IMG/VR virus record: IMGVR_UViG_3300013901_000008
Coordinates: 1 to 64,000 of that record
Direction: 5' to 3' (one strand)
From: a virus
Lineage: Duplodnaviria > Caudoviricetes
Length of the DNA stretch: 64,000 bases
Each line of letters starts with the position of its first letter. Position 1 is the first letter of the stretch. Shown piece by piece: positions 26,277-52,757 of the stretch. Under the pieces are notes generated by a model. That model searched no databases, had not been told where the DNA came from, and saw nothing but the letters and a program-made list of their open reading frames with translations. A program made the position numbers and the translations under genes.

Positions 26277-26589
26277 TTCGTTATAAGATACTTCATATTC
26301 GCATAAATATAAACAGTAAAAAAGGTGAATACTTTTGGATTTTATCTTCTTTTTAGGAAAAAGAGAACTGCAAATGTTTCTAAGCAAAACATAATAGCAG
26401 ATAGATCCCATGTTAAAAGTGTCATGGCTTCGGCGGAAGCTGCATTATGACTTGATTTTGACATCTAAAAATATTATCATCAAACATCTTGCATATCCTT
26501 GGTGCGTGAGTATAGAGGATTGCTTTCTTAAAATAAAGTACATATTTTTTACTCAGCTCATCGGTTCGTGAGGATAGATGAGTCTTCTC

Positions 26590-26662
26590 GCTGGATTAGC
26601 TCAGTTGGCAGAGCGTTCGCCTTGTAAGCGAAAGGTCATAGGTTCGAGTCCTGTATTCAGCT
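26590..26662 (+). tRNA. tRNA-Thr(TGT)
   Basis: GCTGGAT/ATTCAGC acceptor, TAGCTCAGTTGGCAGAGC D-arm, TTCGC-CT-TGT-AA-GCGAA anticodon arm, GGTTCGAGTCC T-arm; CCA not encoded. Confidence 0.93.
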
Positions 26663-26664
26663 CT

Positions 26665-26805
26665 ATGAAAAAGGAAATAGCAATCAATACCTGTATGGGG
26701 AATGTGGCGGTAACGATAAATACCCGATACGAGAATCTCAATATTGAGCATTTTATGTCGTTGGCTCATTTTCCAAGAACAGGGGTAATGGAGGTGTACC
26801 TATGA
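26665..26805 (+). CDS. stand-alone C5-MTase TRD-like minigene 1 (in frame, 46 aa)
   Basis: MKKEIAINTCMGNVAVTINTRYENLNIEHFMSLAHFPRTGVMEVYL; homologous to module 3. Confidence 0.7.
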   Translation: MKKEIAINTCMGNVAVTINTRYENLNIEHFMSLAHFPRTGVMEVYL

Positions 26806-26947
26806 TTAAGTTGGACTATCATATCCCCAAAATAGGGGGGTGCTGACAGGCGTATCGGAGGATTTTAACCGAGGTGCGCTGTGGCTCGTAAGCCGCTGCA
26901 TACGTAGCAATGTGCATGACGCTGGCATTCTCATTCAATATGAATAA
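26802..26947 (+). pseudogene. TRD-like minigene 2, OFF at G6 (26835-40); G7 restores the frame
   Basis: MIKLDYHIPKIGG|VLTGVSEDFNRGALWLVSRCIRSNVHDAGILIQYE after +1 G; ATGA overlap with module 1. Confidence 0.7.
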
Positions 26948-26959
26948 AAACAAATAACA

Positions 26960-28363
26960 ATGATAACAAAAATAAACTTCAAGGACAGAACGATAAAATC
27001 GTATGCCATCAGAAAGCTGACTCCCAAGGAGTGTTTCAGATTGATGGGCATTCGGGACGGAGTAATCCTCCTGATGCAAGCAAGCATATCCCTTGCCAAG
27101 ACTCGCATATCAAGCGCATTCGGCAAAGATGCTTGGGCGCATATCTTTGGCAAGGCTGTAAAAGGCAACGACAATGATATGGTTATATCGGCGAGCCAAC
27201 AATACAAGCAGGCTGGCAACTCCATCGTAGTAGATGTGCTGAAAAGCATCTACTCACAGCTTTGGTACCCAGCACCCAAGCAACCACAGGCACAGCAAGC
27301 ATCGCTCTTCGATGATTTCTTTCCCGAAGACGTATTGCCGTCTATGCCGGTGGAGAAGAACCCAAGCGACAAGGCGAATATCCAGCCTGGCGACAAGGTG
27401 GCTCCAGAGGAGAAAGTGATTATCACTACCTTTAGCGGATATGACAGCCAGTTGATGGCGGCGGATGCCTTGCGTGAGGATCATCCCGATTTCAGATGGA
27501 CGTGCATGGGTTGGAGCGACATCGACAAGTACGCCTGTCAGATGCACAACCTCGTGTTTCCGCAATATGCCGACCGAGCACTTGGCGATATTACCAAGAT
27601 AGATTGGCACAAAGTAAAGGATAGCTTGCAAGGCAGAGAGGTGGACTTGTTTACTTATTCATCTCCTTGCCAAGACATCAGCCAGGCTGGCAAGCAGATG
27701 GGACTGAAAGAGGGTAGCGACACCCGAAGTGCCTTGCTTTGGCGAGTAGCCGATGCCATCGAAGTATTGCAACCTAAGTATCTCCTGCAAGAGAATGTGG
27801 CGGCACTGGTAAGCGAGAAGTTCATGCCCGACTTCAAGAAATGGTTGCAGAAGTTGGAGAGCCTTGGCTACGTGAACCGATGGGCGAGACTGAATGCCAA
27901 GGATTACGGTGTGCCACAGAACAGAGACCGAGTATTCTGCCTCTCGATGAGAAGAGACGTGGCTTTCGATTACCAATTCCCTGAGCCTGTCAAACTGGAA
28001 AAGAAATTGGAGGATGTCTTGGAAGAAGAGGTGGATAAGAGATATTTCCTGAAAGACGATGCGGTATCAAAATTCCTCAAGGCAAACGACAAGGACAGCG
28101 CATTGTTCGTGCAGTTCGACCTTCCACCCAAGCATGAGGATGCGATGTTCCTCAAGACATGGCTCTCGTTTTGGATGGAGGAAGTGAATGGCTGGGAAAT
28201 GAAGCCTACGGAACTGGATAAAGTTATCTGCGAGAAAATGATTGTCGGCAAGTTTACCTACGATTATTCTTCGTGGAAACAAGATGGCACAGAGCCAAGC
28301 GAATACTCTGGTTTCCGTGAGAGATATTTGGAGAATCTGAATAGAAAGGCTTCGGAAGAATGA
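26960..28363 (+). CDS. circularly permuted C5-cytosine DNA methyltransferase (motifs IX-X then I-VIII) with no recognisable TRD
   Basis: N-terminal RKLTPKECFRLMG (IX) and YKQAGNSIVVDVL (X), then FSGYDS (I), SPCQD (IV), ENV (VI), PQNRDRVF (VIII). Confidence 0.92.
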   Translation: MITKINFKDRTIKSYAIRKLTPKECFRLMGIRDGVILLMQASISLAKTRISSAFGKDAWAHIFGKAVKGNDNDMVISASQQYKQAGNSIVVDVLKSIYSQLWYPAPKQPQAQQASLFDDFFPEDVLPSMPVEKNPSDKANIQPGDKVAPEEKVIITTFSGYDSQLMAADALREDHPDFRWTCMGWSDIDKYACQMHNLVFPQYADRALGDITKIDWHKVKDSLQGREVDLFTYSSPCQDISQAGKQMGLKEGSDTRSALLWRVADAIEVLQPKYLLQENVAALVSEKFMPDFKKWLQKLESLGYVNRWARLNAKDYGVPQNRDRVFCLSMRRDVAFDYQFPEPVKLEKKLEDVLEEEVDKRYFLKDDAVSKFLKANDKDSALFVQFDLPPKHEDAMFLKTWLSFWMEEVNGWEMKPTELDKVICEKMIVGKFTYDYSSWKQDGTEPSEYSGFRERYLENLNRKASEE

Positions 28364-28544
28364 AATTTTGTCTAACCAAGGTTGGAAAATCTCGCCTCTT
28401 AAATGAGGGGGGCGGCAACAACCGGTCAACGTAACAAGCGATATGTGTGCAGCGACAATTACCACAAGGTACGAGAATATCGGGCCAACCAATATTCTTT
28501 CGTTAGCGCATTATCCTATGACGGTAGTAATGATAGAATTATGA
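28360..28544 (+). pseudogene. TRD-like minigene 3, OFF at G6 (28407-12); G7 restores the frame
   Basis: MKFCLTKVGKSRLLNEGG|RQQPVNVTSDMCAATITTRYENIGPTNILSLAHYPMTVVMIEL; ATGA overlap with the MTase stop. Confidence 0.75.
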
Positions 28545-28693
28545 GGCAAGATTTCTTCCCCATCATCCTCGGTAAATACTCGCCATCACAAAATGGCGTG
28601 GTGGTATCGCCCAAGGGTATCGCCCTGTGTATATCTGGGGGGGGTAAAGGGCATGATGTTGATAAACCAAAGATATTGATAGAGTATGATTGA
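28541..28693 (+). CDS. TRD-like minigene 4, ON with G8 (28637-44), 50 aa
   Basis: MRQDFFPIILGKYSPSQNGVVVSPKGIALCISGGGKGHDVDKPKILIEYD; QNG.V.SP.GIA...PKI is TRD-like. Confidence 0.75.
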   Translation: MRQDFFPIILGKYSPSQNGVVVSPKGIALCISGGGKGHDVDKPKILIEYD

Positions 28694-28832
28694 GATCTGT
28701 TTCATCAATACTCCTTCGCAGAGAATCGGTGGGGCGATTACTGCGCATTATCACAAGGAGGGATTCGCTAATATCATCCCTAATACAACGTCTAAGGTTA
28801 AAGCACAAGCAATATTAGTAAGTTATGAATAA
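28686..28832 (+). CDS. TRD-like minigene 5 (in frame; tract interrupted, GGTGGGG), 48 aa
   Basis: MIEICFINTPSQRIGGAITAHYHKEGFANIIPNTTSKVKAQAILVSYE. Confidence 0.7.
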   Translation: MIEICFINTPSQRIGGAITAHYHKEGFANIIPNTTSKVKAQAILVSYE

Positions 28833-28974
28833 GACAAGACCTTTCGTGAAGCGAGGTGACACGATAAGTTTTCGGGGGAGGTATTCCACGGCACTCTCTT
28901 CCAGATACGATGGCTGGGGCGGCCTCTACGACAACCATGGTCAACATACTATGCTTCTGTTAATCTATGAGTGA
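28825..28974 (+). CDS. TRD-like minigene 6 (in frame; G5AGG), 49 aa
   Basis: MNKTRPFVKRGDTISFRGRYSTALSSRYDGWGGLYDNHGQHTMLLLIYE. Confidence 0.7.
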   Translation: MNKTRPFVKRGDTISFRGRYSTALSSRYDGWGGLYDNHGQHTMLLLIYE

Positions 28975-29153
28975 GCGCAGAGCCATCCTTACCCACTACC
29001 GCACGGAAGAGGCAAAAGCCTTCCGCCGTCTTTACGGAGATACGGGGGGGGTGCAAGTATCAAGACAAATATCACAGGATGAGTCGTGAGCCGTGGAGCA
29101 ACACGATTTCCACTGTGACAAAAGACAATTTATTATGCACAGAATATTTCTGA
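28967..29153 (+). pseudogene. TRD-like minigene 7, OFF at G8 (29044-51); G7 restores the frame
   Basis: MSERRAILTHYRTEEAKAFRRLYGDTGG|CKYQDKYHRMSREPWSNTISTVTKDNLLCTEYF; SNTISTVTKDNLL is a TRD-type motif. Confidence 0.78.
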
Positions 29154-29314
29154 TAAGAGAAGCCAGAACCGAGCACGCCAAGCAGGTGCGCAAGCTCACG
29201 GGCAGGAATGATTTCCGAGACAAGCAAGTCCCGCTCATCTTTGCCCACGAGACGATGCAGTGCATCGGTACGTTTCTCACAACCGATAACTTGATAGGAG
29301 TATGTTACAAGTAA
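29135..29314 (+). CDS. TRD-like minigene 8 (in frame, no tract), 59 aa
   Basis: MHRIFLIREARTEHAKQVRKLTGRNDFRDK...CIGTFLTTDNLIGVCYK; homologous to module 7 (RTExAK, DNL). Confidence 0.72.
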   Translation: MHRIFLIREARTEHAKQVRKLTGRNDFRDKQVPLIFAHETMQCIGTFLTTDNLIGVCYK

Positions 29315-29458
29315 GGACGTGCGCAAGCCGTGGCAGAAGCGATGGAGATTGGTATCATTCCAAGCATGAGCAAAGGCTGGAAATACGGGGGGGGTGGAGT
29401 TAGCAATGCCATCTCTTCCATCGCCAAGGACTTCTTAATCATCATCGGGTATGAATAA
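29302..29458 (+). pseudogene. TRD-like minigene 9, OFF at G8 (29387-94); G7 restores the frame
   Basis: MLQVRTCASRGRSDGDWYHSKHEQRLEIRG|GGVSNAISSIAKDFLIIIGYE; ASRGR...QRLE...SNAISSIAKD is TRD-like. Confidence 0.78.
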
Positions 29459-36613: not shown

Positions 36614-36658
36614 GAGTAAAAAGGCAAAAAGGTAAAAAAGTAAAAGAGTAAAAAGACA

Positions 36659-36974
36659 ATGCCACAATACAAGCGAGGTACCATCGTCAAGAATGGCAAG
36701 CGATACGGCTTCTATCCCGATGGTACATTATATAGAATATACGACACATCACTACCATTCCTTCAGATGGTGAGCGATGCCGCATCGGGCGATACCTTCC
36801 TTCGCATTCGCCAAGCCACGGAACAGGGTTACACCGATTGTCCCGTGGGTGGCGTTTGCGACCTCGCCTATCCTACGTCGGCGATACGTCGAAGTAGAAC
36901 AATCGGGGGGGGGTAGGCTCGCCAATGCCCTTACAAGCCAAGGGCAGCAGCTATGCGTGTTCGTAGAGTTGTAG
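36659..36974 (+). pseudogene. remote TRD-like gene 10, OFF at G9 (36905-13); G8 restores a 104-aa protein
   Basis: IRQATEQGY...GGVCDLAYPTSAIRRSRTIGG|GRLANALTSQGQQLCVFVEL; QATxxGY and DLxYPxSxxRR are TRD-type motifs. Confidence 0.78.
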
Positions 36975-37082
36975 AGAATAATAAGTAAGAAAGCAAAAAG
37001 ATGATTCTTCATTTTGTACTGTATGTTTTTCTCGGCGGAGAAAAAATCTCTAATTGTTTGAAAGGTTAATTATCAAAAACAA

Positions 37083-37117
37083 GAAGGGCAGGACGTTGTG
37101 ATAACGTTCTGCCCTTC
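37083..37117. terminator. hairpin terminator between convergent operons
   Basis: GAAGGGCAGGACGTT GTGAT AACGTTCTGCCCTTC. Confidence 0.7.
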
Positions 37118-37195: not shown

Positions 37196-38106
37196 TCAGT
37201 TGAACCATTTCACAATGGTGTCGCCCTTGTAACCTTTCTCCCATACGAACCAAGCGTAAGCGGCTGCACTACCCTGCAAAGCGTTGAAGTCGCCATTAGG
37301 CGCACATTTCAAGCGGCTGCTTGATACCCAAACCCTTGAGGGGGGGTAGTGTTAAACAGATGTCTTCTACCCTTACCCTCTAAGAAAGTAAGCTTCAAAA
37401 ACATCGCTACCTTATGCCCATCTGGAATAATCGCCAAAGACTTCTCTACAAACTCTTTGGCATATTTGTATGGCGGATTGGTAACAATATCGCCGTTCCA
37501 CGAGAGGTTGTCTATCGCCAAGAAGTCTATGCCTCCATCGCCGTAACCTCTATCTACCAAGTCTCGACTCTCTACCTCGTAGCCATTCTTCAGCAAGACC
37601 TTACTGATATGACCCTCGCCGCACGATGGCTCCAATATCGGACCATCGAATTTCTCAATCTTGCATAGCCACTCCGTAGCCGCAGGCTCCGTGGCATAAT
37701 AGTCTTCACGCTGGCGGTCGGTATCGGTATGATTACTTGCGCCTAATGTTTTAAAGACGGAAGCAGTCCCGCCTACCCAATCTTTTTTGTTATCCATATT
37801 ATTATTGTTATTTGAAATGTTATCCCCATCGGTTTCTTCACTCTCGGCAGAAACATTGATTTGACGGTTTATCCACTCTATGATGTCTTCATCAGCATCC
37901 TCGGCCAACTCGTTTAGCGTAACGTAGCCATACGCGTCTTCCATCGGATCATCCTCTGTCACCATATAGCTGATTTGGGAATCCTTAAATCCTAAGGCAT
38001 ATAGGATAGCTTCTATATCGTCATTCTGCAAATTCTTAGTCGCATTATCCTCGTCGTTGATAATTGTGACAGTTCCACTACTGTAATCTAAAATTGAAAT
38101 ATACAT
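37196..38106 (-). pseudogene. amino DNA methyltransferase, frameshifted OFF at C7 (G7 on + strand, 37340-46)
   Basis: DYYAT, EPSCGEG, TNPPY; +1 C continues TTPPSRVWVSSSRL...AYAWFVWEKGYKGDTIVKWFN to the stop at 37196; the MTase may start at 37797. Confidence 0.8.
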
Positions 38107-40805: not shown

Positions 40806-41475
40806 TTAGAATAGGGTAGGCTGCATCATCTCCAATTCGATGCGCTTGCAAGCCTTGTCGTAATACTCCTTGTTTAGTTCAAACCCGATGAAGTTGCGCT
40901 TCTCCTTGATGCAAGCGATGGCAGTAGTGCCGCTGCCCAAAAATGGGTCTAAAACCGTATCGTTTTCATTAGTGCTTGCAAGAATCAGCTTACGAAACAG
41001 TTTAGTGGGCTTTTGTGTGGGGTGTATATTGCTATGTCCGCAAGGATAACGTAACACGGTATTCTTACAATGAAGGTTAAACACCCCCCCCCGTTTTCTT
41101 GCCATATACGCACAGCTCTACACCGCTTAACCAAATTTTATTGCCATTCATCGGCGAAGGGTTTGTCTTTTCCCAAACTATAACCCTCGTGCTAAGCTTA
41201 TACTCTTGCATCACGGAACGAATAGTAGAAAGTTGATTAATACCACAGAACATATAAATGCTACCTTTTGTTTTTCTGCAAAGGGTAGATGTTAATTCTT
41301 TTAGATTAAACAAACCTACATCCGCATATTCTTTATTTAAACTACGCAATCCATTATCTGGGCGATTACATTCGTTATAAGGAATATCCGTAAGTACGAG
41401 CGACACACTTGCATCGGGTATTCGCTTCATGCCCTCCAAGCAATCCTCATTATATACTTTATTCAGTTCTATCAT
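40806..41475 (-). pseudogene. beta-class N4C/N6A DNA methyltransferase, frameshifted OFF at G9 (C9 on + strand, 41084-92); G8 restores the frame
   Basis: 5' half DCLEGM...LTDIPY...IVWEKTNP; 3' half HPTQKP...VLDPFLGSGTT; the junction is exactly at the tract. Confidence 0.88.
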
Positions 41476-52463: not shown

Positions 52464-52757
52464 ATGAAGACTAAAAGAAGAATGCCGCAGCCTCCTAAAG
52501 GTAGTTGGCTCGACAGAAATGGACAGCGATGGATTAAAATATTCTTCGATGTGATGTCCGGTTTCGGGGGGGGTGAAAAGTTCCTTCGTCAGGTAGGTAT
52601 CGTATTCCCGATGTTTTTCAGTTTTGAGCTGGGGCAATATGTGATAGATATGGATGCCTGTAATCTTCAAGAGAAGATACAGGATAGCTATCCTACATTA
52701 AAGAGATACTCGAATCTGCATTTCGAGATAACGAGTAATAAAATCTTACAAAGATAA
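52464..52757 (+). CDS. hypothetical protein containing an in-frame G8 tract (52566-73)
   Basis: 97-aa ORF, GFGGGEKF. Confidence 0.6.
   Translation: MKTKRRMPQPPKGSWLDRNGQRWIKIFFDVMSGFGGGEKFLRQVGIVFPMFFSFELGQYVIDMDACNLQEKIQDSYPTLKRYSNLHFEITSNKILQR

Follow-up and report, generated by a model that had tools for sequence, protein, structure and literature searches.

The gene TRD104, located at positions 36659-36974 (+ strand) of a phage genome, is best read as a phase-variable gene whose product acts in trans as a specificity subunit for a C5 cytosine methyltransferase (MTase), a reading to which a probability of about 0.6 is given on the basis of sequence comparisons. The window that was analysed comprises the first 64 kb (64,000 nucleotides) of the 106.5-kb IMG/VR phage record IMGVR_UViG_3300013901_000008, which is rated as complete by CheckV. 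Established for this gene are its homology to the target-recognition region (TRD) of C5 methylases, its lasting separation from the catalytic core, the conservation of its linkage, purifying selection, and the hypervariability of a G tract. According to the proposed mechanism, the 104-aa protein would dock on the single, circularly permuted and TRD-less core encoded at 26960-28363, occupying the gap that separates motifs VIII and IX via its conserved C-terminal hydrophobic strand VFVEL, and would give the core one extra sequence specificity, in the manner of the HsdS subunit of Type I enzymes. This specificity would be toggled as strand slippage lengthens or shortens the G tract, being on with G8 or G11 and off with G7 or G9, the off states losing both the recognition motif and the docking strand. 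The phage population would carry mixed methylation patterns, which may help against host Type II restriction and limit exposure to methyl-dependent restriction.

As assembled, the gene carries an OFF allele. Its ORF of 85 aa (36659-36916, + strand) starts at the ATG at 36659 and ends at a TAG (36914-36916) placed straight after a nine-base G homopolymer (36905-36913, + strand), exactly as an earlier sequence-only reading of this DNA had described it. The tract codes for a Gly-Gly-Gly loop and its in-frame lengths are 8 or 11, so that the 85-aa product breaks off ahead of an ALT motif and a terminal hydrophobic strand. That reading had also proposed that one G fewer would reveal a hydrophobic C-terminal signature, and this is what was found: with a G8 tract, the minigene (36659-36974, + strand) encodes 104 aa with the C-terminal sequence ...GGGRLANALTSQGQQLCVFVEL and its stop at 36972-36974, and the residues gained comprise the ALT motif and the tail VFVEL. 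The coding segment behind the tract, read in the G8 frame (36915-36974, + strand), is intact over 19 codons plus the stop. More than 100 free-standing proteins of ~101-110 aa align with the 104-aa reading over its full length, with 60-89% identity and mostly 98-100% of the query covered, while the 85-aa reading aligns with only the first 80% of these homologues. The comparison of these sequences confirms the 104-aa reading as a real gene and not a chance frame. The OFF state of the gene at its G tract, also part of the earlier claim, holds here and in the majority of the other assemblies in which this phage is represented. No Pfam family was found in a search with the 104-aa protein, and the more than 100 cluster representatives of its homologues carry neither a Pfam domain nor an informative name. 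GenBank phage records (n = 50,697) gave no match to the region by megablast or to the protein by tblastn.

Downstream of the gene, a terminator-like hairpin of 16 bp (37083-37117, no strand assigned) lies between TRD104 and a convergent amino-MTase gene. In a strain from another study (run X1), the 107 nt that follow the stop of the gene (36972-37080) are replaced by 767 other letters, and the intergenic stretch before the hairpin is thus a variable spot.

The identity of the product as a stand-alone TRD of a C5 cytosine MTase is, by sequence homology, near certain, in agreement with what had been claimed from the letters alone. An alignment of 30 homologues shows 25 invariant positions, including the motifs YKRG, YG.YPDG..YR, LR.RQ.T..GY, and D..YP, and two near-invariant features, namely RR.R and the glutamate (E) of the terminal VEL. 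When a profile of this family was run with hmmsearch against 1.84 billion representatives, 527 matches were obtained at E<=1e-3, and eight of the ten long matches that were scanned are PF00145 enzymes matched within their variable region. One of these enzymes, P0204, is matched by the family profile at residues 250-311, and hhalign aligned the family with it over 71 columns with a probability of 97.7% (E 2e-12). In P0204, motif IX comes directly after the part aligned to TRD104. According to these alignments, residues ~40-100 of TRD104 correspond by homology to the TRD found in canonical C5 MTases. The N-terminal segment of about 45 aa, which had been pointed out as an extra part of this module, is real and conserved, and it includes the motifs YKRG and YG.YPDG..YR; it is unique to the family and invariant within it, and it is missing from most canonical TRDs. 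The short hydrophobic strand that closes the minigene products has a counterpart in the fused enzyme P0207, in which several TRD-like units are present and a strand of this kind closes every one of them.

Many further free-standing proteins consisting of a TRD only (P0158-P0197) have been observed, more distant in sequence, 60-100 aa in length, and often containing a Gly run (RVQGGG). Another protein, P0171, is a 135-aa TRD-IX-X protein with a TRD of the TRD104 type, and it resembles the beta subunit of M.AquI. Stand-alone TRDs of this type, as recognised by their sequence, occur well beyond this phage group. Literature searches retrieved no description of stand-alone TRD minigenes or of phase-variable phage C5 TRDs, and Benler et al. 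2021 is silent on them too.

Structural modelling is neutral with respect to this identity. A first AF2 model of the monomer, built from a shallow alignment, reached a pLDDT of 61.7, and a second one, obtained with a deeper alignment of 47 rows that included distant free-standing TRDs, reached 86.9 and is all beta. For the latter model, Foldseek retrieved no PDB entry at E<=0.001, and VIA-align 2, run in its wide setting, reached only Z 2.0-2.2; a PDB sequence search with the family profile gave chance-level matches only. Solved C5 MTases carry TRD types other than that of TRD104. Since there is no clear PDB match, the predicted fold neither supports nor contradicts the TRD reading.

The presumed partner of TRD104 is the sole C5 MTase core of the genome (26960-28363, + strand), whose permutation is deduced from the order of its PF00145 matches. 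Positions 268-322 of the Pfam model (motifs IX-X) are found at 26951-27262, ahead of positions 23-219 (motifs I-VIII) at 27500-28096, and positions 220-267, which correspond to the TRD, are missing. The core starts ~16 aa before motif IX and has an extra C-terminal tail of ~130 aa. The order of these matches, together with the P0204 alignment, indicates that, in the canonical order, the end of the minigene coincides with the beginning of the core.

The relationship between both genes was studied in a comparison set of 44 related viral loci. In 38 of them, the permuted core starts between 33 nt and ~2.4 kb downstream of TRD104, and in one further locus the two genes adjoin across contig ends. 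Where it neighbours the core, TRD104 is always a separate ORF with its own start and stop, and the spacer between TRD104 and the core contains in-frame stops in each of the eight loci in which it was read. The TRD is thus free-standing in all copies seen, instead of being a segment of a methylase polypeptide. A search for longer, fused relatives of TRD104 found none, a result that constitutes weak evidence taken alone; none of the hmmsearch matches above 129 aa covers the whole TRD104 profile, and the best 120 core homologues measure 432-491 aa, or ~795 aa with an intein, with no TRD104 fusion among them. In the larger cores of some relatives (G003, represented by L022, L049, and L050, as well as P0303, P0339, and P0349), the catalytic Pro-Cys motif (query residues 235-237) is interrupted by an intein (PF14528, PF13403, PF14890). 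A split intein or trans-splicing was also considered for the minigenes; their short terminal motifs VFVEL and MITK are, judged by eye, unlike intein ends. In another genome, G008 (L042), rated 94% complete, only the first 90 residues of the core are kept and TRD104 is OFF (G7), a single case that fits the joint loss of both partners.

These data bear on the possibility that the protein is a DNA binder derived from a TRD that does not complete a methylase, acting instead as a sequence-specific regulator, as a decoy that protects sites from host restriction, or as a competitor that blocks the TRD slot of the core. Such a role would suit the unique and invariant N-terminal 45 aa, the confident folding of the monomer by itself in the model, and the failure of a TRD supplied alone to engineered permuted cores (PMC5944983). 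However, TRD104 is tightly linked to a TRD-less core in 38 of the 44 loci, it ends exactly at the boundary between the TRD and motif IX at which the core starts, and its terminal strand is common to the TRD units of the fused enzyme P0207. Moreover, the core lacks a TRD and depends on receiving one for DNA recognition, which also argues against a mere DNA binder, and this alternative is considered improbable.

A census in which the whole genome was queried with all minigenes of the relatives shows that TRD104 is one of many modules. Two TRD minigene modules lie directly upstream of the core (26668-26944, census span 26584-26944, + strand), just downstream of a tRNA-Thr gene (TGT; 26590-26663, + strand), which precedes the first TRD minigene of the cluster. 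An array of approximately seven modules, three of them with G8 tracts, follows the core (28377-29455, + strand). TRD104 itself, recorded in the census at 36656-36971, lies 8 kb from the core and is indeed the tenth TRD gene, as had been counted before, of a total of ~13. The sequence-only reading had suggested searching the rest of the genome for further modules, and three were found beyond the window, two of them near 67.6-67.9 kb (67654-67833 and 67821-67949) and one near 78.9 kb (78868-78996) in genome coordinates. They are intact and far from the core, and they include an in-frame G8 at 67783 and an in-frame G7 at 78926; TRD104 is therefore one of four remote modules and not the only one. 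All of the ~13 modules are separate ORFs, unlike the tandem TRDs within one polypeptide that define multispecific C5 MTases.

In the relatives, the other minigenes are likewise intact and tightly packed ORFs of ~36-110 aa, present on both sides of the core, and their content and order vary from one relative to another. This strong variation in module order and content is what would be expected if the gene were mainly a recombination cassette, that is, a donor of TRD sequence for the slot upstream of the core or for other modules, with specificity being changed by DNA shuffling instead of by trans-acting subunits. Several database proteins point in the same direction: P0095, P0104, P0131, and P0147 begin like TRD104 and continue into the tail of a different module, some of them joined at the Gly/G tract. 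In a further chimera, P0127, the N-terminus of the core is joined to TRD104. These chimeric proteins represent either module recombination or assembly artefacts, and in the second case they would lend nothing to the cassette. Furthermore, each copy has its own ATG and stop, also at the remote site, YKRG is conserved, the dN/dS is low in place, and the product stays separate from the core even after recombination. Donation of sequence is for these reasons regarded as quite unlikely to be the main function of the gene.

The position of TRD104 in the window was offered by the sequence-only reading as the best internal evidence for modules that act in trans. It had argued that a module 8 kb from the catalytic core cannot be joined to the MTase by frameshifting or read-through. 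The distance is as stated, and what the comparison modifies is its generality: the usual site of the gene is directly upstream of the core, and the remote site is special to a sub-lineage of three genomes. The order rSAM gene, TRD104, convergent amino-MTase gene, and terminase was found only in the window, L046, and L027 among the 44 loci. In the genome of L046, the core is 87% identical to that of the window and lies likewise ~8 kb from TRD104. Between the window and L046, the TRD104 gene shows a dS of 0.69 and a dN/dS of 0.12; for the 19 codons behind the tract, the dN/dS is 0.07, with six synonymous differences versus one non-synonymous difference. Such low ratios imply that selection has maintained the gene even though it is not linked to the core, and in a frame that the present consensus does not read. 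As the remote position is kept in a second genome and the gene is under purifying selection there, the reasoning that the module cannot be joined to the MTase, and that it would act in trans, holds. Action in trans on the core is the best explanation, preferred with moderate confidence, and the unlinked yet selected copy provides the strongest genomic argument for the minigenes being subunits and not debris.

The same comparison leaves very little room for the idea that TRD104 is the decaying remnant of a former full-length methylase. Its frameshift in this assembly would fit with decay, but nothing other than the tract length is damaged, purifying selection acts on a downstream frame that is still open, more than 100 homologues are intact, and no MTase remnant adjoins the gene. 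The finding named beforehand as capable of refuting a trans-acting module, namely a remnant of an adjoining full-length MTase in relatives, was not encountered in them, and the copies that neighbour the core are intact and unfused.

The G tract codes for a Gly-rich loop just before the ALT motif. Across the 44 loci, this site is occupied by G6, G7, G8, G9, or G11, or by interrupted forms such as GGGGGTGG. The gene is in frame in 33 loci and out of frame in 11, nine of which are shifted exactly in an uninterrupted tract. Frameshifts thus affect nine of 15 uninterrupted tracts (at least G6) versus none of 29 interrupted ones (Fisher p = 7e-6), and a change of a single G restores the frame in all eight shifted tracts in which this could be evaluated, the ninth running off its contig. 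At the protein level, the C-terminus of the family is missing in 45 of 120 protein clusters, according to a test of our own, and inspection indicates that ~36 of them diverge at the tract. Some of these OFF clusters have hundreds of members. Near-identical pairs of loci differ in the number of Gs (L024/L042, L029/L033, L034/L035, and L037/L039), and the gene tree requires at least five independent gains or losses of the uninterrupted tract.

The base composition of the region was examined as well. Runs of at least G7 occur 18 times in the window (overlapping matches), compared with 3.4 expected from shuffles. Among the Gly codons, GGG is the least used (7%), and a G8 run encodes none of the nine Gly-Gly-Gly stretches in long ORFs. 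In the whole genome, TRD modules account for 2% of the DNA but contain six of the 11 G/C runs of at least 7 (p = 3e-8), and two more are found in other methylase genes. The length variation, the rarity of GGG, and the enrichment of runs in TRD modules together suggest that the tract is a selected, hypermutable site, and it is very likely, judging from these sequences, that it is hypervariable. It shares with contingency loci that a coding homopolymer sets the frame and that both ON and OFF alleles exist among near-identical genomes.

Contigs from Logan allow the same phage to be followed in other assemblies. The tract is G7 in two runs, one of them possibly the source sample, and both G7 and G8 in a third one, while in a fourth run the contigs break at the tract. 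The sole G8 contig of this strain has low depth and five other differences, and longer assemblies are never G8. A neighbouring G7 run at 37340 has a constant length in the same Logan contigs. No run in which the phage was detected is recorded as RNA. The disagreement between G7 or G8 in Logan and the assembled G9 implies that the tract length of this phage is not fixed, G7 and G9 both being out of frame. All these tract data are contigs, in which biological and technical heterogeneity within one sample are inseparable, and part of the variation could be technical, since the IMG G9 and a Logan G7 possibly come from the same sample; this counts against the reading as a switch. It also counts against the best explanation that the consensus is OFF in all three genomes of the remote sub-lineage: G9 in the window, G7 in L046, and G8 in L027, in which G7 would be in frame.

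For this reason, it has to be weighed that the gene may not be truly off, either because the true tract is in frame and G9 results from a homopolymer or assembly artefact, or because slippage of RNA polymerase or of the ribosome on the run yields sufficient full-length protein at any DNA length, with the tract acting as a leaky attenuator and not as a switch. The assemblies of the same phage that disagree (G9, G7, and G7/G8), the run whose contigs break at the tract, and the purifying selection on the post-tract frame in spite of the OFF consensus in the three remote-lineage genomes would all be accounted for in this manner. Nevertheless, this alternative does not agree well with the longer assemblies of the strain, which never show the G8 found only in the low-depth contig with five other differences, with the invariance of the G7 run at 37340 in the same contigs, or with OFF clusters that have hundreds of members from many samples. 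A gene that is not truly off is held to be unlikely, albeit the most serious of the competing explanations. A programmed ribosomal frameshift as sole explanation was discarded, because the OFF alleles are shifted both ways (+1 and -1) and no single programmed frameshift fits them.

With regard to the docking step of the proposed trans-acting subunit, a complex was predicted between the core of the window and P0002, the closest intact homologue of TRD104 (89% identical), used as a stand-in. The median score was 0.54 (0.83, 0.54, and 0.52 in the individual runs), and the best of three controls scored 0.00. Of 80 solved complexes, 58 attained the mark applied to these scores, as did two of 110 mismatched pairs; scores of 0.60 or less include only seven of those 80 solved complexes and both of the passing mismatches. 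A pass in this range is false in the majority of cases, except for pairings with a high prior probability. The runs share at least 33% of their contacts, and the partner has a pLDDT of at least 41, with an uncertain fold in two of the three runs. The model thus lends weak support to the predicted binding of TRD104 to the core, and, as both chains are pieces of a fold that has been solved as one chain, the pass may stem from their likeness to solved C5 MTases.

C5 methylases are textbook single-chain enzymes. In Type I enzymes, a separate subunit, HsdS, sets the target sequence. In bacterial phasevarions, a simple-sequence repeat in a coding region switches methylation specificity, and the systems involved are Type I, Type III, or amino-MTase systems. 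TRD104 would resemble both of them in having a coding repeat as a switch and a separate specificity subunit, and it would differ in that the switch is located in the stand-alone C5-MTase TRD of a phage, one among ~13 modules. Multispecific C5 MTases of Bacillus phages (M.SPRI, M.Phi3TI, M.H2I, and M.Rho11sI), reportedly characterised by the Trautner group, hold tandem TRDs in one polypeptide. By analogy with them and with P0207, one core would serve several TRDs of the type QATxxGY ... YPxS.xRRxR ... with a TL-like motif, each unit ending in a short hydrophobic strand. Unlike in those enzymes, each TRD is here a gene of its own, TRD104 is 8 kb away from the core, and single TRDs have homopolymer switches.

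Circularly permuted C5 MTases are known in nature as Type H enzymes, with the order TRD-IX-X-I-VIII (M.BssHII, M.Alw26I, M2.Eco31I, M.Esp3I, and M2.BsaI; PMC5944983). TRD104 and the core (IX-X-I-VIII) are colinear with this order in most relatives, but a stop codon and a spacer always part the TRD from motif IX, in contrast to the single chain of Type H enzymes, and in the lineage of the window the genes are unlinked. A naturally split C5 MTase, M.AquI, is cited in PMC5944983 as being active from two subunits. The analogy with M.AquI would lie in the assembly of an active C5 MTase from two polypeptides; the difference is that the TRD of TRD104 is detached at either end, also on the side of motif IX.

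The topology [IX-X-I-VIII] + [TRD alone] has an engineered equivalent in the Class J permutants of M.MpeI and M.SssI, which produced no methylation in E. coli when split in this manner (PMC5944983). By analogy, the inactivity of this equivalent counts against action in trans. Nevertheless, the natural core differs from the Class J pairs by its ~130-aa C-terminal tail, and the minigenes by their shared conserved terminal strand, and one or the other of these elements may supply the docking that is missing from those pairs.

If the reading as a trans-acting subunit is correct, a natural family with the topology that failed when engineered would show how the specificity of a C5 MTase becomes modular, and it could serve as a template for programmable 5mC writers. 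Conservation of the TRD104 family extends to more than 100 phage genomes, and selection on it persists where the linkage to the core is lost. Contingency loci would then be a means by which phages vary the methylation of their DNA in response to restriction and to methyl-dependent defences. What the comparison adds to the sequence-only reading is the usual site upstream of the core, as in a split Type H enzyme, the selection acting at the remote site of the sub-lineage, the several tract lengths, and the three additional remote modules. A broader model is considered slightly more probable than its negation, with somewhat less confidence than the role of TRD104 itself: in these phages of gut Bacteroidales (probably Prevotella), a TRD-less core would be run in a Type-I-like fashion by ~10-15 scattered and exchangeable TRD subunits, several of them independently toggled by poly-G tracts, giving rise to a combinatorial, heritable, and reversible methylome, with TRD104 as the ancestral cognate subunit derived from a split Type H enzyme.

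Other genes in the window are also interrupted at, or contain, homopolymers. The convergent neighbour of TRD104 encodes an NPPY amino-methyltransferase (37196-38106, - strand) and is broken at a C7 tract in gene sense (37340-37346). As read from the sequence, the addition of one C joins its 265-aa N-terminal part to a conserved C-terminal part of 38 aa; in L046 and L027, there is no homopolymer at this position and the gene reads through in a single frame. A beta-class amino-MTase gene, with the motifs DIPY ... HPTQKP ... DPFLGSGTT (40806-41475, - strand), is divided into ORFs of 132 and 99 aa that overlap at a nine-base G run in gene sense (41084-41092; C9 on the + strand), and it reads as the third methylation gene in the window that is off at a homopolymer. 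Finally, a 97-aa ORF (52464-52757, + strand) contains an in-frame G8 run coding for Gly-Gly-Gly (52566-52573).
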